From contig NZ_JBGFSK010000017.1 in the NCBI RefSeq assembly GCF_041365945.1, positions 2,555-12,733 on the forward strand: a stretch of DNA of 10,179 bases, written 5' to 3'. The translations under genes were made by a program, and so were the position numbers. Shown in pieces: positions 1,715 through 9,919 of the stretch. Position 1 is the stretch's first letter. Each line of letters begins with the position of its first letter. Source of the stretch: Janibacter sp. GXQ6167. Lineage in GTDB: Bacteria; Actinomycetota; Actinomycetes; Actinomycetales; Dermatophilaceae. The notes under the pieces were generated by a model. That model was not told where the DNA came from. It saw only the letters and a list, made by a program, of their open reading frames with translations, and made no database searches.

Positions 1715-2329
1715 GTGGCCGCGCGAGTCGTCGATGTGCGTTGTCCGGGATGCGGGAGCGCCTGGAGCACCAACCAGCAGTTCTGCCAGTACTGCGGTCG
1801 CCAGGTGCTGATCAGCTCGATGTCCGACCTGATCAGCCTGGAAGCGCGCGACCTCAAGAAGCACGTCCGTACCTACGAGGACGCGCTGGACGAGGGCGCC
1901 GATGATCCGAGCGTGCATGCGGCGCTCGGCATGTGCCTGCTCAAGCTGGGGCTGCGCGACAAGGCGCTGTCGCACTTCGAGGATGCGCTGCTCGATGACA
2001 TCGAGAACTCGGAACCGTACTTCTACGCCGCCGTCGCGTCGCTGGGTGGCAAGAAGCCGTTCCTGGTTCCGCTGGCTGGCATCCGCCGCGCGGAGGAGTA
2101 CCTCACGGCGGCGCTGCGGCTCGAGGAGCGCGGAATCTACGCCTACCTCTACGGGTACATCCGCTTCGACTACTACGAGCGCAAGTCGCTGAACGTCGAG
2201 CCGTCGTACCAGCACTACCTGCAGCAGGCAGTGCTTCGCGGTGTGACCGATCTGGACATCCAGACGCTGTTCGAGCTGCTGGAGATCGTCCCTTCGTCCG
2301 CTTCCATTCCGACCAGCGTTTCCGCCTGA
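1715..2329 (+). CDS. Zn-ribbon plus TPR-like repeat protein (hypothetical)
   Basis: Track ORF 1523-2329. I place the start at GTG 1715, which has GGAGG at 1702-1706 with an 8-nt spacer. In-frame alternatives are ATG 1661 and GTG 1736. The N-terminus carries CPGCGSAWSTNQQFCQYCG (CxxC-x11-CxxC zinc ribbon). HAALGMCLLKLGLRDKALSHFEDAL is a textbook TPR-like helix pair. The rest is helical and shows high-GC third-position codon use. Confidence 0.8.
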   Translation: MAARVVDVRCPGCGSAWSTNQQFCQYCGRQVLISSMSDLISLEARDLKKHVRTYEDALDEGADDPSVHAALGMCLLKLGLRDKALSHFEDALLDDIENSEPYFYAAVASLGGKKPFLVPLAGIRRAEEYLTAALRLEERGIYAYLYGYIRFDYYERKSLNVEPSYQHYLQQAVLRGVTDLDIQTLFELLEIVPSSASIPTSVSA

Positions 2330-2365: not shown

Positions 2366-3061
2366 ATGGCCATCAACTATGAGCGCAACAAGAAGTACTT
2401 CAAGCAGTCCAGCCCCAAGGCCGGCATCATCCTGATCGTGATCGGCCTGGTGCTGACGCTCGCCCTCCCCGAGGCGGGCAAGCTCGTCGGCATCCTGGGC
2501 ATCCTGGGTGGCGCGGCGCTGATCTACTTCCAGTTCGCGGGCAAGCCGAGCGACGCGGACATCGACTCGGACGCTGCTGCCGCCATCGCGGACGTGAAGA
2601 AGCGCGCGCTGGGCAAGCTCGGTCTGGACGAGGACGAGGTCAAGCTCATCGACCCGGTGATCGTTCACGGCTACTACTACAAGAACATCGCCTCGGGCGT
2701 GCAGGTCAAGCTCGGCAAGGACCGCGTCTTCCGTTCCTCGAACTACGAGGGCGTCGTGCTGTTCTTCAGCGAGCACCAGCTGCACGCGTTCAAGTTCCAG
2801 TTCTCTCTCGTCTCGCCGCAGGAGAGCCGCGAGCAGACCGACGAGTACTTCTACAAGGACGTCGTGTCGGTGGCGACGCAGTCGGAGACGTTCAAGATCA
2901 ACGACATCAAGGGCAACAGCCAGCAGGTCAACTTCGAGGAGTTCAAGCTCACCACCACGGGTGGCACCTCGATCACTTCGTCGATCCGCGACGAGGGCTC
3001 GGTCAGCCGCGTCATCTCCGGCGCGCGCAGCCTGATTCGCGAGAAGAAGATCGCGTCCTGA
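2366..3061 (+). CDS. Membrane protein: N-terminal 2-TM hairpin plus beta-rich soluble C-terminal domain (possibly PH-like); function unknown
   Basis: ATG 2366 has GAGAGAGG ~10 nt upstream. The TM segments are AGIILIVIGLVLTLALP and LVGILGILGGAALIYFQF (about 2420-2536). The C-domain has alternating strand-like segments (VIVHGYYY, VVLFFSEHQLHAFKFQFSL, EYFYKDVVSVAT, FKLTTTGGTSI). I recognise no catalytic motif. Confidence 0.85.
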   Translation: MAINYERNKKYFKQSSPKAGIILIVIGLVLTLALPEAGKLVGILGILGGAALIYFQFAGKPSDADIDSDAAAAIADVKKRALGKLGLDEDEVKLIDPVIVHGYYYKNIASGVQVKLGKDRVFRSSNYEGVVLFFSEHQLHAFKFQFSLVSPQESREQTDEYFYKDVVSVATQSETFKINDIKGNSQQVNFEEFKLTTTGGTSITSSIRDEGSVSRVISGARSLIREKKIAS

Positions 3062-3115: not shown

Positions 3116-3156
3116 ACCAATTCCGCTGCCCGAGCGTGACGTGAGGAGTGTGCCGT

Positions 3157-5841
3157 ATGCCCGCAGGCGACGCGCCCCTGACGTTCACGCCTCTCGCGCA
3201 GGGTGAAGTAGCCGCTGCTACGGTGGTCGAGGTCGTCCGCATCCCGCACGTCTCCGTGCTGGGCGATGATCCGGCTGCCGAGCTGGTGCAGCAGTCCAAG
3301 CGGGACTTCGTCAGCCTGCTGTTCGAGGCGTACCAGTCGTACCGCGGACAGTACGAGGACGGCCCCGACCGAGCTAGCGACTGCGCTCTGGAACTGCTTT
3401 GGCAAGCACACCCCATTCAGGGCCAGCCGCACGCCGCCGACCTCACGCTATTCATCATCGTTCGCGCGATCGGCGCGAACCGGGACGACGCAGCGGCGGT
3501 TGTCAACGAGCTGCACGCTGTCGTGATCAGCGCGCTCACGCTCGGCGGCTTCGACTACGCAGATCGTCCTGCCTCCGCGATCGGCGCCCAGGCGGCGGAA
3601 CGGTCGGTTGCGCTCGTGAAGGAGGAGTGGATTGAGAACCTCGGCAACCAGATCCTGCCGAGCGCCTTCGCCTTCCACCGTATCCCCACGGGCAGCCGTG
3701 ATCTCTCACGTATCGCCAGCGCCCTAACCGAGGTGCCCGGTGCGTCCCTCTCGGTTCAGCTGATCCCGGCGACACTGGAGCCTGACGAGCGGACTGCTAT
3801 CGAGCAGCTGACGCTGGCGCTCACGACCCTCGCCAACGGTGTGACGGATCAGTCGATCGGTACCGTCAGCTTCACCGCGGCGAAGCGCCTCGCGGAGATG
3901 TACTCGTATCTGGAGGGGCACAAGGACTCGCCCCTGTTTCTGTTTAACGTCGTCGTCTCCGGGCCGAAGCTCGCCGTGCCGGTGATCGCCAACCGGGTGC
4001 TCGGTCACCTCTCCGCCGACGCCGAGGTAGGCGCGCTGGCGGCACGCTTCGTCGACGCCACAGCCCTGGTGCCACGAGGCGATGCGTCCTTCGTCGCTGC
4101 ACCGTGGCAGCTGAACGAGACGCTGCTCGACCAGACTCGTGATCCGTCGCTCTGGGCGGCGGGCCGCAATCCCGGTGAGGCATTCTACCGGCTGCCGTTC
4201 CTGCTGACGGCATTCGAGGCATCGGAGTTGTTCCGTCTGCCGATCGGCAGTGACACGGTCGGCGCCGGGCTGACGGTGAACACCACGACCCGGCACTCGC
4301 GCAACTACTCGGCCGGCGTGATCGGGAGCTCGAGCATCGAAGCCGGGCGACTCGCCGGGGCGGCCGAGGTCTCGATCGGGTTCGGGCATACCGACCTGAC
4401 CAAGCACGCTTTCGTCACGGGGACGCCCGGTTCGGGTAAGACGACGTTCACGGTCGGGCTGCTCGACCGGCTCTGGCACGAGCACGGCATCCCGTATCTG
4501 GTGATCGAGCCGGCGAAGAACGAGTACCGGGCGCTGATCGAGACGACGCCGGATCTGCAGGTGTTCACCCCGGGCAAGGATCATCTGTCTCCGCTTGTGC
4601 TGAACCCGTTCCTGCCGCCAGCGGGCGTGCGGGTGCAGAGCTACAAGTCGACCCTCAAGACGGCGTTCGCAGCCGCGGTCACGATGACGAGCCCCCTGGA
4701 CAAGATCTTCGAGGACGCCCTCTCAGCCACGTACTCGCGGTTTGGCTGGTTCGATGCCGACACAGCCGCCGATGGCCGTGAGGTGTTCTCTATCCGCGAC
4801 TTCCTGGCCGTTTTCCAGGAGACCTTCGTCCGCATCGGCTACACCGGAGACGCGGCCAACATCGGACGAGCAGGCCAGGTGCGCCTGCAGAGTCTGGTTG
4901 GCCTGTTCGACACCTACCCTTCGATCCCTGTCGAGGATCTGCTGTCGAAACCCACGGTAATCGAGCTGGCAGGGATCGAGAACAGCGACGACAAGGCCCT
5001 CTACATCGCGCTCATCCTGCTGCAGGTCCTCGCCTACGTGAACGCCAACGTCGCCGGCGACGGGAAACTCAAGCACGTCCTCCTGCTCGAAGAAGCCCAC
5101 GTCTTGCTCGACGCCGACGACGCCAGCGGACCGGGCGAAGCGGACCCCGCCGCGATTGCGAAGAAGCTGCTCAAACGCATGTTGGCCGAGATCCGCTCCT
5201 ACGGCGTCGGCATCATCGTGGCCGATCAGTCGCCACGCAAGGTCGGCTCGGACGTGGTGGCGCTCACGAACATCAAGCTCGGGTTCCGGCTGGTCGAGGC
5301 CGCAGACAAGGAGATCCTGGCCGAGAGCACCAACATGAGCGACGCGCAGCGCGAGCGGCTGGCGCGGCTCCGGCCGGGCGAGGCACTCCTGTTCTACGAC
5401 CGCCTCGAAGACCCCGAGGAGATCGCCACAGCCGACTGGCGCGCCCAGCGCGGCATCCCGACGTTCGTGTCCGATGAGGAGATCGCCCGAAAGGTCACTT
5501 ACTGGCAGCGGCACCCGGAACTGCTCATGCCATACCCGGAGAGCGCCTACATCGGGGGCTGGGACGCCTCGGTTGCCGGTGCGGGCAAGGAGATCGCCCG
5601 GCGCCTCTTCGCCGCGCACGTCCCGGCCGGCGATGTCGGCGTCAAGAGATTCGGCAGCATCTACCGGCAGCTCGATGCGTTCATCGCCGCCGAACTTCCC
5701 GCGTCGATCCCGAACACGCCGGCCCTGCGGCGAGCGGTCAAGGTCAACTTCCTGCGGCTGGTCAAGTACGAGTCGCAGATCCCACTGTCGGACGCCACGA
5801 TCCACAAGACCCTCGAAGCCGAGAGGAGCCGCACAGCATGA
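3157..5841 (+). CDS. HerA/FtsK-superfamily P-loop ATPase (DUF87/HerA-like C-terminal half) with a ~420-aa uncharacterised N-terminal region
   Basis: Track ORF 3148-5841. ATG 3157 is preferred, with GAGGAG at 3143-3148 and an 8-nt spacer. Walker A is GTPGSGKTT (4420-4446). YLVIEPAKNEYRAL follows it. Walker B is VLLLEEAH (5077-5100). IIVADQSPRKV, TNIKLGFRL and LRPGEALLF match the motif order of HerA-type hexameric ATPases. Confidence 0.93.
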   Translation: MPAGDAPLTFTPLAQGEVAAATVVEVVRIPHVSVLGDDPAAELVQQSKRDFVSLLFEAYQSYRGQYEDGPDRASDCALELLWQAHPIQGQPHAADLTLFIIVRAIGANRDDAAAVVNELHAVVISALTLGGFDYADRPASAIGAQAAERSVALVKEEWIENLGNQILPSAFAFHRIPTGSRDLSRIASALTEVPGASLSVQLIPATLEPDERTAIEQLTLALTTLANGVTDQSIGTVSFTAAKRLAEMYSYLEGHKDSPLFLFNVVVSGPKLAVPVIANRVLGHLSADAEVGALAARFVDATALVPRGDASFVAAPWQLNETLLDQTRDPSLWAAGRNPGEAFYRLPFLLTAFEASELFRLPIGSDTVGAGLTVNTTTRHSRNYSAGVIGSSSIEAGRLAGAAEVSIGFGHTDLTKHAFVTGTPGSGKTTFTVGLLDRLWHEHGIPYLVIEPAKNEYRALIETTPDLQVFTPGKDHLSPLVLNPFLPPAGVRVQSYKSTLKTAFAAAVTMTSPLDKIFEDALSATYSRFGWFDADTAADGREVFSIRDFLAVFQETFVRIGYTGDAANIGRAGQVRLQSLVGLFDTYPSIPVEDLLSKPTVIELAGIENSDDKALYIALILLQVLAYVNANVAGDGKLKHVLLLEEAHVLLDADDASGPGEADPAAIAKKLLKRMLAEIRSYGVGIIVADQSPRKVGSDVVALTNIKLGFRLVEAADKEILAESTNMSDAQRERLARLRPGEALLFYDRLEDPEEIATADWRAQRGIPTFVSDEEIARKVTYWQRHPELLMPYPESAYIGGWDASVAGAGKEIARRLFAAHVPAGDVGVKRFGSIYRQLDAFIAAELPASIPNTPALRRAVKVNFLRLVKYESQIPLSDATIHKTLEAERSRTA

Positions 5842-7019
5842 GCGACTACGGCACCGACATTGCAGACGCCCCCGTCGACACCGGCGCGGACGTCAGCGTG
5901 CCCGATACGACCGACTACGCCGACGAGCCGGTCGACCTGGCCGAGACCCCGCCCGAGTCGGAGGCGCCCGAGGCCGAGGAGGCGCCGCCCGCCGAAGACC
6001 TCTCGGAGCCCGCAGCAGATGAACTGAGCGGCACGGCGGAGACGCCGGCGGATGCGGAGGCACCCGTCGACCTGGGCGCGGCCCCGGAAACGGCCGACGC
6101 CGCCCCGGAACAGCCCCAGGACTGGCAGGAGGGCGAGGTCGTCGATCTCGGCGACGACGCTGCCCCCGACGCCCCGCAGGAGGACGAGACCGCCGAGGCG
6201 GACGATCCTGCCGGGCGCGACCTGGGTGATCCCGACCTGGCCGACAGCCCGGAGGCCGAGGCTCCCACGGATAGCGCCGGTGAGGATCTGACGACACCGA
6301 CGGACGACGAACCGGGCGCCGGTGATGCGCCGACTGACGCCGACGAGCAGGTACCTGAGGCGGCGGAGATTGAGCCCGAGGCCGCAAACGACGTGACGGA
6401 TGCCGAACCCGAGCCCAGGGTCGATGAGTTGACAGAGGCGGCCCGGGATGAGGCCCGCCCCGCCGACGAGCTGCGCGCCGAGTACTACGCCGACGTGGCT
6501 GATGTGCTGGCCGATGACACACCATCCGACGCCGAGCCGGTCGAGACGCAGGACACTCCCGGAGCAGACGCTGCCGAGGCGCCGGAGTCGAGCGATCACG
6601 CGGACGCCGCCAATGACCGCAGCAACTCCCCAGAGAACGAGGCACTGACCTCGGCGCTAGCCGAGAAAGGCCTGTCGCTGGAGCCGGTCGATCGCTTCGA
6701 CTACAGCGACAACCCGGTTCTCGGCTACCGCGAGTCCGCCCCGCCCGAAGACGTCGCGTACGCCGTCAACGCCTGGAACGACGAGATCGCGCCCGGCATC
6801 GCGGCCGGCGCGACCCGTGAGGACTTCGCCGCCTACGACCAGGAGCACGGCCTCGAAGGGCAGCGGCAGCTGGCCGGCGTCTACGACTACATGCTCGGCG
6901 GCGACGCGATCAAGAGCGGCGGAGAGCGCGAGGACGGATCGCTCGACGTCACCGGCGGCAGGCACCGCCTGGAACAGGCGCGTCTGAACGGCGTCCAGTA
7001 CCTGCCCGTGAGGAAGTAG
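5838..7019 (+). CDS. Hyper-acidic, low-complexity protein with a C-terminal ParB/Srx-like (GxHR) domain; function unknown
   Basis: ATG 5838 overlaps the ATPase stop (ATGA), and GAGGAG lies at 5823-5828. By hand count the first ~270 aa hold about 89 D/E, 6 R and 0 K, and are rich in P, A and T. The last ~115 aa are ordinary in composition. They end DGSLDVTGGRHRLEQARLNGVQYLPV, which resembles the ParB-N/sulfiredoxin-fold signature (x-G-x-H-R-x2-A-x4-G-x4-P-V). Confidence 0.85.
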   Translation: MSDYGTDIADAPVDTGADVSVPDTTDYADEPVDLAETPPESEAPEAEEAPPAEDLSEPAADELSGTAETPADAEAPVDLGAAPETADAAPEQPQDWQEGEVVDLGDDAAPDAPQEDETAEADDPAGRDLGDPDLADSPEAEAPTDSAGEDLTTPTDDEPGAGDAPTDADEQVPEAAEIEPEAANDVTDAEPEPRVDELTEAARDEARPADELRAEYYADVADVLADDTPSDAEPVETQDTPGADAAEAPESSDHADAANDRSNSPENEALTSALAEKGLSLEPVDRFDYSDNPVLGYRESAPPEDVAYAVNAWNDEIAPGIAAGATREDFAAYDQEHGLEGQRQLAGVYDYMLGGDAIKSGGEREDGSLDVTGGRHRLEQARLNGVQYLPVRK

Positions 7020-7056: not shown

Positions 7057-8256
7057 ATGAAGATCTACGACGTCATCAAGAACGAGACCGGCCTTCTCAA
7101 CGACGGCCTGGGCTCGAAGGCCGTGCTGGCGTGGAAGTTCACCGGTGAGGACTTCAACGACAACACGCAGCTGATCGTCTCCGAATCGGAGGAGGCGATC
7201 TTCATCCGCGACGGCATCGCCGTGGCGACCTTCGGCGGCGGCCGCTACACGCTCAACAGCAACAACCACCCCTTCATCGGCAGGCTGAGGAACCTGCTCT
7301 CCGGCGGGGTGAGCGCGTTCAGCTCGCGGGTGTACTTCGTCAACATCGATCACAAGTTGGAACTGCTGTGGGGCACCGACAGCCCGATCCAGCTCCGCGA
7401 CCCGGTCTGGAGCCTGCAGACCAGCGTGCAGGCGCGCGGCTCGTACTCGATCCAGGTGACGGACTCCAAGAAGTTCCTGATCAAACTGCTCGGCACCAAC
7501 ATCCAGGTTTTCGACGAGCAGCAGCTCGCCGGCTACTTCCGCAGCGCCTTCTCGCAGCACATCCGCGGACAGATCGCCCGCTACATCCGCGACTCCGGCC
7601 AGGAGATCCTGGAGATCACCTCGGACATCGAGCTGCTGGCCGAGCAGCTGCACCCGAGGCTCGCACCGCTGCTGGATGAGTACGGCGTGAAGCTCGTCAA
7701 CTTCTACATCGCCGCGATCGACATCCCCACCGACGACCCGAACCGCCAAGTGCTGGAGAACTCGATCGCACAGAAGCAGGCCAAGCTGCAGAGCGCGCAG
7801 GGCGATAAGGCCGTCATGGGGCTGCTCGGGGAAGACTGGGCCAGGCAGCAGTCGGCCACCATCCTCACCGAGCTCGCCAAGAACCCCGGCGCGGGTGGCG
7901 TGGCTTCCGCGGGTGCCGCAGCAGGCGTTGGCCTGGCTGCGGGCAGCGTCTTCGGGGAGATGGCGACGCAGATGTTCACGCGCCCCGTCCAGCCCGCAGG
8001 CGACCCGATGGCTGGCAATGTCGGGCGCAACCGCACATCGCGCTTCTCGCCCGCAGAGCCTGCCGCGCCGGCCGCCGCCGAGACGTGTCCGGGCTGCGGC
8101 GCGAGCGTGGCGGCGGGAGCGAAGTTCTGCCCGGAGTGCGGCAACCGTCTCGCACCTCAGCAGGTGCCCTGCTCGGGTTGCGGAACCGCAATCGCGAGCA
8201 CGGCCAAGTTCTGCCCCGAATGCGGAACGCCGAACAACCAGGGAGCATCCTCATGA
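7057..8256 (+). CDS. SPFH/band-7 family protein of the YdjI (COG4260-like) type with a C-terminal double zinc ribbon
   Basis: The N-terminal ~235 aa (MKIYDVIKNE...WKFTGEDFNDNTQLIVSESEEAIFIRDG...YFVNIDHKLELLWGT...RGSYSIQVTD...VKLVNFYIAAIDIP) match the YdjI / virion-core-protein-like SPFH family pattern. A Gly/Ala-rich segment GAGGVASAGAAAGVGLAAGSVFG follows (about 7885-7956). Then come two ribbons, CPGCG-x9-FCPECG and CSGCG-x9-FCPECG (8086-8232). Confidence 0.93.
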   Translation: MKIYDVIKNETGLLNDGLGSKAVLAWKFTGEDFNDNTQLIVSESEEAIFIRDGIAVATFGGGRYTLNSNNHPFIGRLRNLLSGGVSAFSSRVYFVNIDHKLELLWGTDSPIQLRDPVWSLQTSVQARGSYSIQVTDSKKFLIKLLGTNIQVFDEQQLAGYFRSAFSQHIRGQIARYIRDSGQEILEITSDIELLAEQLHPRLAPLLDEYGVKLVNFYIAAIDIPTDDPNRQVLENSIAQKQAKLQSAQGDKAVMGLLGEDWARQQSATILTELAKNPGAGGVASAGAAAGVGLAAGSVFGEMATQMFTRPVQPAGDPMAGNVGRNRTSRFSPAEPAAPAAAETCPGCGASVAAGAKFCPECGNRLAPQQVPCSGCGTAIASTAKFCPECGTPNNQGASS

Positions 8257-8930
8257 CCCGCACGATCCTGCGCGCCATCCTGTGGCTCGTCCCCATCGCC
8301 GTCTACGTCGCCATCTTCCTCATCCTCGAGGCCCCGCAGGGCGCGACGTTCTGGACGTCCGCACTGCTGCTGGCGTTCGCCTACGTCATGCTCGCCGTCA
8401 GTTTCGTCGCCGTGCCGCGCAGTCGGATAGCCGCGATCCTGGCCATGCCCCTGATCCTGGTGGCGAGCATCTACTTCACTGCCGAGCTCATCGCGGCCAG
8501 CATCTTCATCTACGTGCAGGACATTCCATACCCGTGGGTGATCATCACGCAGCTGATCCTGGCCGCGATCTTCCTCGTCGTGTTCCTCACCACCTTGTTG
8601 TCCAACGAGGCCATCGCCGCCCAGATCGAGACCCAGCACGCCGACGTCCTGGTGATCAAGAGCGCCGTCACCCGCATCACGGCCCTGGGACGTGTCGCCC
8701 ACGATCCGCGCCTGGCGAAGTCGCTGGACGGGCTGGCCGAGGAGTTCCGCTACAGCCCGACGATGCGCTCGAACCAGGTGCGCGAAGTCGACGCGCAGAT
8801 CGCCGTGCAGCTCGAGCGACTGGAGAGCCTCGTCCACATCCAAGCTTCGCAAGAGGATACCGTCGGCCAGATCGCGGCGATATCCGGGGCGCTCGCTTCA
8901 CGCAACGAGGCGATCAAGCTCCGCCAGTAG
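8253..8930 (+). CDS. Integral membrane protein (4 predicted TM helices) with a helical C-terminal domain; function unknown
   Basis: ATG 8253 overlaps the SPFH stop (ATGA), and GGGAG lies 7 nt upstream. There are four long hydrophobic segments (ILRAILWLVPIAVYVAIFLIL, FWTSALLLAFAYVMLAVSFVAV, IAAILAMPLILVASIYFTAELIAASIFIYV, WVIITQLILAAIFLVVFLTTLL). About 110 aa of amphipathic helix follow. The longer track ORF from 8085 overlaps the SPFH gene out of frame, so I reject it. Confidence 0.85.
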   Translation: MTRTILRAILWLVPIAVYVAIFLILEAPQGATFWTSALLLAFAYVMLAVSFVAVPRSRIAAILAMPLILVASIYFTAELIAASIFIYVQDIPYPWVIITQLILAAIFLVVFLTTLLSNEAIAAQIETQHADVLVIKSAVTRITALGRVAHDPRLAKSLDGLAEEFRYSPTMRSNQVREVDAQIAVQLERLESLVHIQASQEDTVGQIAAISGALASRNEAIKLRQ

Positions 8931-9376: not shown

Positions 9377-9919
9377 TCAAGGCCGGGGCGAACTCCCGAG
9401 CAGGGCGTGCAGCTGATGGCTGGCTGGTGAGACGGCGCGAATGCGGGTCTCGTGGAGGGCGGGGTCGTGCGTGCGCAGGTACATCGCCCAGAACGCCGCG
9501 TCGGCATACGTTGTGTGCAGATCTGACTGCGCCCGCCAGCCGCTCGAAGCGGTGCGCCGGTAGCCGACTTCGTAAGGGCCGCCATGCAGGAGTTCCTGCA
9601 CGAGTGATGCCGGGACGTCACCGACCGGGTAGGTGCTGCCGATATCGCCCACGAGGAGCACGTCGCCGTGCAACGCCGGCCGCTGCCTTGAAGTGGTGTC
9701 CCAGAACCAGCGCAGCGACGAGGCGCGCAGGTTCATCGGGAGCCCGTTTCGGCGGTCGTCGGCGTCGAGCCACATCGTGACACCTCGGCTCTCGATGTCG
9801 ATCGGGATCACCAGATCAGCGAGCTGCTGAATGTCTGCGAACCCTGCGACCTCCCGCGTTTCGAGTTGTTGCTCGATCTGCGCCGGGATGAGAACAGCCG
9901 TGACGGTCTCACCATTCAC
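9377..9919 (-). CDS. Hypothetical protein with an N-terminal DUF3846-like domain
   Basis: Track ORF with a GTG start at 9919. VTAVLIPAQIEQQLETREVAGFADIQQLADLVIPIDIESRGVTMWLDADDRRNGLPMNLRAS...GDVLLVGDIG follows the DUF3846 pattern as I recall it (ALLIP...V..LQ.LVGG.IE......LW.NEEG...GLP.N.RA....G..l..G). The C-terminal ~80 aa are unassigned. Confidence 0.6.
   Translation of the reverse strand: MNGETVTAVLIPAQIEQQLETREVAGFADIQQLADLVIPIDIESRGVTMWLDADDRRNGLPMNLRASSLRWFWDTTSRQRPALHGDVLLVGDIGSTYPVGDVPASLVQELLHGGPYEVGYRRTASSGWRAQSDLHTTYADAAFWAMYLRTHDPALHETRIRAVSPASHQLHALLGSSPRP

Follow-up and report, generated by a model that had tools for sequence, protein, structure and literature searches.

A YdjI-type SPFH protein encoded with an optional HerA/VirB4-class ATPase and an acidic-leader protein in a widespread gene cluster

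The six-gene cassette and its relatives

The window analyzed here, a stretch of 10,179 nucleotides from Janibacter sp. GXQ6167 (assembly GCF_041365945.1, contig NZ_JBGFSK010000017.1, positions 2,555-12,733 of the forward strand), contains a cassette of six genes, g1 to g6, all encoded on the + strand in the same direction. The fifth gene, g5 (7057..8256), encodes a 399-residue SPFH protein of the PF13421 (YdjI-type) family with a double Zn ribbon and is followed by g6 (8253..8930), encoding a protein with four transmembrane segments and a conserved cytoplasmic helical tail. At the upstream end of the cassette are g1 (1715..2329), which encodes a soluble 204-residue protein combining a Zn ribbon with a TPR-like region, and g2 (2366..3061), whose product consists of a hairpin of two transmembrane segments, a conserved cytoplasmic β-rich domain and a basic C-terminal helix (LREKK). 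Between g2 and g5 lie g3 (3148..5841), encoding an 897-residue DUF87/HerA-type ATPase of the HerA/FtsK/VirB4 superfamily with a family-specific N-domain of ~390 residues, and g4 (5838..7019), encoding a 393-residue protein in which an acidic disordered leader precedes a C-terminal globular domain (~6612-7016). ATGA overlaps join g3 to g4 and g5 to g6, while the remaining intergenic gaps measure 36-86 nucleotides, an arrangement that fits a single operon; a scan of the window for promoters and terminators was uninformative in this high-GC DNA. When the window was compared by blastn with two related actinobacterial contigs (L001 and L018), homology spanned only 1634/1702-8935 and therefore ended exactly at the edges of the cassette, which shows the six genes to move as one unit.

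Related loci were surveyed in species-representative genomes, using the best 80 of 178 confirmed loci, which are not phylogenetically independent of one another; open reading frames (ORFs) came from a simple caller and the family seed hidden Markov models were built on 5-7 sequences. The 80 loci represent about ten phyla and stem from Actinomycetota, Bacillota, Bacteroidota, Synergistota, Spirochaetota, Verrucomicrobiota, Planctomycetota, Desulfobacterota, Alphaproteobacteria, Gastranaerophilales and two Thermoplasmata archaea. Genes g5 and g6 are direct neighbors in 79 of them, the exception being a locus (L067) that stops 166 bases past g5. They form the constant pair within a conserved membrane module of four genes, g1, g2, g5 and g6.

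Among the 41 loci with full flanks, g3 is present in 23 and missing from 18, and the most frequent gene orders are g1-g2-g3-g5-g6 (12 loci), g1-g2-g5-g6 (11 loci) and g3-g5-g6 (9 loci), the last mostly with a variant Zn-ribbon/TPR gene after g6 that in some cases has its own transmembrane anchor. Wherever g3 occurs it is found upstream of g5, and it lies between g1/g2 and g5 in all loci where g1 and g2 were detected upstream. This upstream placement is seen across Actinomycetota, Bacillota, Bacteroidota and Synergistota. A Modestobacter locus has the identical six-gene set within unrelated flanks. Gordonia and a gut bacterium carry g1-g2-g3-g5-g6, likewise with unrelated flanks, and here other acidic or variable genes replace g4 or an acidic gene is located elsewhere. 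Gorillibacterium and Bacillus timonensis encode g1-g2-g5-g6 without the ATPase, and the core alone is also found in Paenibacillus and many other hosts.

The SPFH protein and its membrane partners

The SPFH domain of g5 (~7150-7734) matches the PF13421 model Band_7_1 with an E-value of 1.3e-33 and 116.9 bits (cut-off 24), compared with just 29.5 bits for the generic PF01145 model. An assignment to the HflK/C or flotillin type, which the first-pass annotation of the window had named as the outcome that would speak against its reading, is rejected in favor of the PF13421 subfamily. The SPFH domain is followed by a Gly/Ala-rich, glycine-zipper-like segment (7885-7956, residues 277-300) and by two Zn ribbons (8086-8142 and 8170-8226) that match the DZR and Zn_Ribbon_1 models at ~1e-10. 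In an alignment of 22 homologues, the zipper, NPGAGGxAAxGAGxGxGxAAG, ranks with the best-conserved regions of the family, N276, G280, G281, A283, A287, G290 and G292 being invariant, and all eight ribbon cysteines (C344/C347/C358/C361 and C372/C375/C386/C389) are invariant or nearly so. No hydrophobic segment of g5 reaches the transmembrane threshold. SPFH core, zipper and ribbons are located where the first-pass annotation had placed them, as is the ATGA coupling to g6 that it described; its two ribbons are likewise real, the spacing being CxxCG-x8-FCPECG and not x9.

The architecture is widespread, with 1736 matches, the top 120 of which are 42-97% identical to g5. Searching PDB sequences and profiles with g5 returned Zn-ribbon proteins only, and phage and plasmid collections essentially lack the g5 clade, containing distant PF13421 relatives only. 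The C-terminus of these SPFH proteins is exchangeable: most carry two ribbons, while some have three, a SHOCT domain or none (P0036, P0066, P0117, L098 6696-7856, L099 11877-13052). In protein P0047 (L013 5920-7863), which is 55% identical, a TIR_2 domain replaces the Zn ribbons, and genes for serine recombinases and RyR-domain proteins adjoin; P0047 may represent a defense-type offshoot of the SPFH family.

For comparison with YdjI, a pspA-ydjGHI locus of the Bacillus subtilis type was recovered from a metagenome contig via the published ydjI primer sequence (PMC8581546); the same primer found no match in the viral contigs scanned. In the recovered locus, YdjI scores 146.9 bits on PF13421 and has a single ribbon at its C-terminus, YdjH contains a TPM domain and YdjG has two ribbons. 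BLASTP aligns g5 and YdjI end to end over 345 residues at just 20% identity, and Bacillus members of the g5 clade are similarly distant from YdjI (22-24%). At the profile level, HHalign relates 81 g5 relatives to YdjI with a probability of 99.8% (E 6e-29, 320 columns). Both proteins share the domain order SPFH, Gly-rich low-complexity stretch, C-terminal Zn ribbon or ribbons. Judged by these comparisons, g5 belongs to the YdjI subfamily and has its architecture, but is a distant paralogue in a separate clade and not an orthologue. The earlier label "YdjI-like" is appropriate in this sense, namely for family, domain order and profile similarity, but not as a statement of close relationship.

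The start codon of g6 (ATG 8253-8255) overlaps the stop codon of g5 (TGA 8254-8256), indicating translational coupling. All four hydrophobic segments of g6 lie within residues 1-113 and are followed by a helical tail of ~110 residues, in which the motifs ANE, D..KkiEk.YD and eRN are conserved across 79 homologues. No match to g6 was found in Pfam, NCBIfam or PADLOC, and an exact-sequence look-up of the g6 from the window returned no record. In g1, a ribbon of the same style, already pointed out by the first-pass annotation, is present at 1742-1798 (CPGCG...FCQYCG), and all matches to the Pfam models DZR, Zn_ribbon_3 and TPR_2/TPR_19 are below threshold. The g1 reading frame is open from 1523, however, the probable start is GTG 1715 because homologues (184-225 residues, 38-86% identity) align only from ORF residue 65 onwards. 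Most related loci encode a g1 homologue, located either upstream of g2 or downstream of g6. Among the variants found after g6, those in L055 (11812-12567), L059 (7760-8506) and L061 (2787-3548) share a conserved terminal "CYIATAVYGSYDCPEVWVLRRYRD" motif, and others (L041, L044, L045) end in transmembrane helices. The hydrophobic segments of g2 span residues 14-32 and 37-55. Its family is conserved (alignment A6), and searches of Pfam, NCBIfam and PDB returned no sequence match. In some g2 homologues of this alignment (L087 8729-9358, L093 1957-2592), a short "KYF..GGC" N-terminus replaces the hairpin.

The first-pass annotation considered these membrane proteins to be analogous to YdjG and YdjH. 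Profile comparison does not bear this out: HHalign gives g2 and g6 a probability of 0.3% against the TPM-domain protein YdjH, none of the g2 and g6 comparisons with YdjH or YdjG exceeds 12%, and g1 aligns with YdjG over the ribbon only (33 columns). Based on these profiles, the partners of g5 are not homologues of YdjG or YdjH, with just the Zn ribbon of g1 in common with YdjG. The absence of PspA from the cluster, also part of the first-pass annotation, does hold. Pfam identifies neither a PspA_IM30 nor a TPM domain in any window protein, nor PspA in the Pfam-annotated related neighborhoods, and single-sequence phmmer queries with B. subtilis PspA and YdjH, which have limited sensitivity, gave no match within ~10 kb of the SPFH gene in ~95 related loci.

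The cassette therefore shares with the PspA-YdjGHI (SamGHI) system of B. subtilis a PF13421 SPFH protein with colinear domains and no transmembrane helix, encoded together with Zn-ribbon and integral membrane proteins. It differs in the low identity of g5 to YdjI, in having two ribbons in place of one, and in its partners, which are Zn-ribbon/TPR, two-transmembrane and four-transmembrane proteins rather than YdjG (two Zn ribbons, an NTF2-like domain and a transmembrane segment) and the TPM-domain protein YdjH. Further, its operon encodes no PspA, and the client is instead an optional HerA/VirB4-class ATPase with an effector.

The ATPase and the acidic-leader proteins

The third gene encodes the Walker A (GTPGSGKTT, 4420-4446) and Walker B (LLLEE, 5080-5094) motifs and the RecA-like fold of the HerA/FtsK/VirB4 clade. 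Only generic ATPase models are matched, specifically PADLOC HerA, mad8 and DndH. The best NCBIfam match is the DNA-translocating ATPase CedD, far below cut-off, and a sequence and profile search of the PDB gave weak HerA matches only. An AlphaFold model generated from 25 sequences has a pLDDT (predicted local distance difference test) score of 73.8, with a well-predicted N-domain. Foldseek places full-length TrwK/VirB4 at the top (E 1.7e-12), but with template-modelling scores of just 0.24-0.26, and the closest folds include the defense ATPases DndH, Sir2-HerA and DUF4297-HerA. The modelled fold thus assigns g3 to the HerA/VirB4/coupling-protein clade and is compatible with either DNA or protein as a substrate. 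The N-domain was detected in 152 of 1.84 billion cluster representatives, and full-length matches, ~860-945 residues long, bear it N-terminally; it exists in this ATPase family only. Mean column identity within the g3 family is 68% across phyla.

Several observations connect g3 to the membrane module. Although the presence of g3 is interspersed over the g5 tree, its pairwise identities show correlations of r = 0.84 with g5 and r = 0.93 with g6, at least as strong as those among the core genes. Three ATPase homologues, independently picked from the ATPase search, are all encoded in PF13421 clusters. The association of a HerA-type ATPase with the SPFH set, as proposed by the first-pass annotation, is real. 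That annotation had also reasoned that SPFH and four-transmembrane genes occurring without the ATPase in related genomes would mean two unrelated adjacent operons. Such loci do exist (18 of the 41 with full flanks), but this conclusion does not follow and is rejected, because g3 is nested at the same position in several phyla, its divergence is coupled to that of g5 and g6, and all three homologues fall into PF13421 clusters. These comparisons point to g3 and g4 as an optional integrated module nested in the core and not a second, unrelated operon. On the Priestia megaterium plasmid pN447-3.1 (L097 7221-13694), the gene for a distant ATPase homologue of 34% identity precedes one for a 1135-residue protein of acidic tandem repeats, and the vicinity contains no SPFH gene; the ATPase-cargo pair is therefore a module of its own.

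The same observations bear on the possibility that the cluster is a YdjI-like module for membrane stress or membrane organization, working with PspA or another client encoded elsewhere, into which ATPase and acidic gene were inserted as passengers. Family and architecture of g5 are those of YdjI, many hosts, Bacillus, Paenibacillus and Gorillibacterium among them, carry the core by itself, and B. subtilis SamGHI has PspA-independent roles (bioRxiv 10.64898/2026.02.06.704340). A passenger would, however, hardly be expected upstream of g5 in every g3-positive locus of four phyla, and between g1/g2 and g5 where these are detected, nor to track g5 and g6 in its divergence as tightly as core genes track each other. 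The three examined ATPase homologues in SPFH clusters, as well as the gene overlaps and short gaps of a single operon, likewise speak against it. We regard this explanation as quite unlikely.

The fourth gene was overlooked in the first-pass annotation, and taking it into account changes the functional reading. Its product starts with the motif MSDYG (5838-5852), followed by DEPVDL (5922-5939), and its C-terminus ends in GGRHRLEQARLNGVQYLPV. Within the first 150 residues, the fraction of D+E is 0.33 and that of K+R 0.01. Nearly every g3-positive locus encodes directly after g3 a protein with a comparable leader that is strongly acidic, free of K and R and often repetitive; in these acidic-leader proteins the D+E fraction ranges from 0.25 to 0.57 and the length from ~110 to 1374 residues. 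Acidic ORFs were found in 22 of 33 g3-positive loci versus none of 23 g3-negative loci. An N-terminal motif, M-x(1-3)-[DEKNG]-[FY], which was defined after inspection of the data, is shared by 20 of 29 distinct proteins encoded next to g3 but by 9% of background ORFs, and EP[LVI]DL is found at residues 29-34 in 8 of the 29, all from Actinomycetota and Clostridia and including the g4 of the window.

The C-termini of these proteins differ from locus to locus. Pfam identifies a TNT (NADase) domain in Fretibacterium (L026, 7e-16), Gln_amidase/Tox-PL1 in L082 (4.7e-15) and Peptidase_C39_2 in L038 and L047 (7.6e-11), while L062, L086 and L098 have HExxH metallopeptidase-like C-termini that are mostly below Pfam cut-offs. 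Small ORFs downstream of many cargo genes, of 88 residues in L026 and 82 in L082, co-vary with the C-terminal type, one small ORF having a weak SUKH/SMI1_KNR4 match (E 0.0019). The cargo family as a whole thus consists of a conserved N-terminal region and locus-variable C-terminal toxin domains. Exchangeable C-terminal toxin domains together with co-varying small genes are the signature of polymorphic toxins (PMC3482391), and the variable C-termini and small ORFs seen here fit it. No signal peptide or known trafficking domain was detected in the cargo proteins.

The C-domain of g4 itself belongs to a family found in Microbacterium and Modestobacter loci only, plus one distant member from Coriobacteriales. 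It has no Pfam match and nothing significant in a profile search of PDB sequences. A large-database homologue search with this domain returned no proteins, though ones of 60-88% identity sit on contigs of those same collections. The g4 C-domain of the window is a putative toxin, and g4 appears to be a polymorphic effector or cargo of the ATPase. The g3/g4 module, nested between g2 and g5, pairs a HerA/VirB4-class ATPase with an effector whose disordered leader is polyanionic, which carries a short conserved N-terminal motif resembling a signal and whose C-domain is exchangeable.

Possible functions, genomic context and known systems

We hypothesize that the cluster encodes an SPFH platform anchoring an ATPase that delivers polymorphic toxin-like effectors, a model to which we give an even chance. 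The glycine zipper of soluble g5 would mediate its attachment to the inner side of the membrane through g6 and probably g2, and g5 would oligomerize into a platform or cage, with the TPR protein g1 and the Zn ribbons serving as adaptors. The ATPase g3 would dock on this platform, recognize the N-terminal motifs of the effector and, powered by ATP, thread its acidic leader or pass it on, thereby delivering the toxin-like C-terminal domain into the membrane or through it. We infer all of these physical interactions, as well as where and in which direction transport takes place. Earlier work links SPFH proteins to the assembly or function of type IV and type VII secretion systems (T4SS and T7SS; PMC8656257), and YdjI requires membrane partners to reach the membrane (PMC8581546). 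The cluster may therefore be an undescribed way of delivering toxins. A more far-reaching proposal, which we put forward tentatively and consider somewhat doubtful, is that it represents an unrecognized protein-delivery pathway of monoderm and diderm bacteria, in which a single-domain HerA/VirB4-class ATPase on a dedicated SPFH/four-transmembrane platform reads a short N-terminal motif, threads a polyanionic, DNA-mimicking leader and exports polymorphic toxins such as TNT NADases, Tox-PL1 deamidases and peptidases.

The surroundings of the cassette are relevant to two further explanations. Its left flank in the window contains, both on the - strand, a Zn-ribbon fragment of an ISL3-type transposase (538-960) and a truncated phage integrase N-terminus (1204-1857, SAM-like domain only) that overlaps the g1 start region; these ORFs are mobile-element remnants at the left edge of the cassette. 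Downstream, also on the - strand, lies a gene for a DUF3846-like protein (9377-9919; 25.4 bits, cut-off 27.5). In Microbacterium sp. HA-8 (L017), whose SPFH protein is 96% identical, ~2.7 kb lie between the cassette and the DUF3846 region (L017 12138-14810) that the window lacks (junction 9194/9195), and the two sequences share no homology left of 1574. Elsewhere, the gut-bacterium cassette (L009-L011, ~14989-19806) is located ~3 kb upstream of a type II CRISPR-Cas9 locus, and in L099 genes for a relaxase, a MobC/NikA-like protein and ArdA lie directly beside the cassette (13918-16648), pointing to a mobilisable or conjugative element.

Given these contexts, the cluster could be an anti-phage or abortive-infection system, in which the HerA-type ATPase, perhaps together with an SPFH platform sensing membrane events, detects infection and the effector is released inside the producer, the acidic leader serving to mimic DNA or as an inhibitory tether and not to signal export. 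The cassette is an accessory element that occurs in differing contexts, flanked by transposase and integrase remnants in the window, by Cas9 in one homologous case and by ThiF and TnsA-like neighbors in L001. Further, g3 matches the PADLOC models HerA, mad8 and DndH and is structurally close to the ATPases of DndH, Sir2-HerA and DUF4297-HerA, a close SPFH relative (P0047) is fused to a TIR domain, and variable effectors are typical of defense systems. However, PADLOC models (PADLOC-DB v2) match none of g1, g2, g4, g5 and g6, the TNT, Tox-PL1 and C39-like domains are classic polymorphic-toxin domains (PMC3482391), small ORFs that co-vary with the effectors frequently lie behind them, an arrangement known from toxin-immunity pairs, and about half of the loci do without ATPase or effector. 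Known HerA defense systems (Sir2-HerA/Nezha, DUF4297-HerA, DndFGH/DptH and MADS mad8) also differ in composition: Sir2, DUF4297 and NurA are not found here, no PADLOC model matches the partner proteins, and an acidic-leader effector as well as membrane and SPFH components are present instead. A role in defense is unlikely in our view.

Alternatively, the ATPase might pump DNA for conjugation or uptake, like VirB4, TraB or Ced, at an SPFH-organized membrane site, making the cluster a DNA-handling device of a mobile element. Full-length TrwK/VirB4 are the top Foldseek matches of g3, and its best NCBIfam match is CedD, though far below cut-off. In addition, L099 lies beside relaxase, MobC and ArdA genes, L100 beside a weak T4SS-pilin match, and integrase and transposase remnants and a DUF3846 gene flank the window cassette. 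As opposed to T4SS and conjugation systems, no relaxase, coupling protein or VirB6/VirB8-type channel protein was found in the Pfam-annotated cassettes, most loci reside in ordinary chromosomal contexts, and the obligatory acidic toxin-domain protein beside the ATPase would be left unexplained. We therefore judge this explanation to be highly improbable.

A number of points weigh against the delivery model itself, which is a computational one. Since 18 of the 41 complete loci lack both ATPase and cargo, the core must serve some function independently of them. The fold of g3 is equally close to DNA translocases (HerA, DndH) and to secretion ATPases, none of the components looks like a known translocation channel, and no outer-membrane component was found in diderm hosts. 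With respect to the effector, the N-terminal motif was derived from related loci and its p-values are indicative only. The g4 C-domain has no detectable toxin homology, and no immunity-like ORF follows g4 in the window. Two other approaches to this domain were also unproductive. A ParB box-II reading of its GGRHR...LP ending is unproven, HHalign aligning that motif at 1.7% probability with a Spo0J sequence, and a single-sequence AlphaFold model reached a pLDDT of 57, with meaningless Foldseek matches (SARS protease, E > 1).

Polymorphic toxin systems (PMC3482391; Zhang et al. 2012) such as T7SS with LXG toxins, driven by the FtsK/HerA-type ATPase EssC/YueA, are one of the closest known parallels to the cluster. 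These likewise combine a conserved N-terminus with exchangeable toxin C-domains (TNT, Tox-PL1, peptidases), have small co-varying downstream genes and encode a HerA/FtsK-superfamily ATPase and membrane proteins alongside. The leader found here, however, is a polyanionic disordered repeat with short motifs and not WXG/LXG, RHS or PAAR. In addition, the ATPase has just one ATPase domain, joined to a unique N-domain, an SPFH component is included, and known secretion-system genes are lacking. Flotillin and other SPFH scaffolds offer a second parallel, SPFH proteins being tied to HerA/FtsK/VirB4-class machines in Staphylococcus aureus (FloA and T7SS), Agrobacterium tumefaciens (T4SS in detergent-resistant membranes) and Helicobacter pylori (HP0248 and Cag T4SS), as g5 would be to g3. 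Those scaffolds are unlinked and general-purpose, while g5 is a dedicated SPFH paralogue encoded in the same operon as its ATPase and diverging in step with it.

No description of the cluster was found in the literature searched. Its parts, namely PF13421 SPFH proteins, HerA-class ATPases and polymorphic toxin domains, are known. What appears to be new is their combination: an SPFH/four-transmembrane platform with Zn-ribbon/TPR and two-transmembrane partners, an ATPase with a unique N-domain and effectors with polyanionic leaders. The analysis re-annotates the family of ~890-residue "DUF87" proteins and provides a searchable effector signature, in which M-x-[DE]-[DE]-[FY] is combined with EPLDL near residue 30 and a low-complexity acidic region. 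If the ATPase does export acidic-leader proteins, this would constitute a new mode of trafficking for polymorphic toxin systems; gut Clostridia and Bacteroidota account for many of the hosts and are members of communities shaped by interbacterial antagonism. For the SPFH family, YdjI/SamI emerges as one branch of a broader family with differing membrane partners and clients. SPFH proteins are ubiquitous and mechanistically obscure, and a dedicated paralogue with a defined ATPase and recognizable cargo would offer a genetically tractable pair of client and scaffold.

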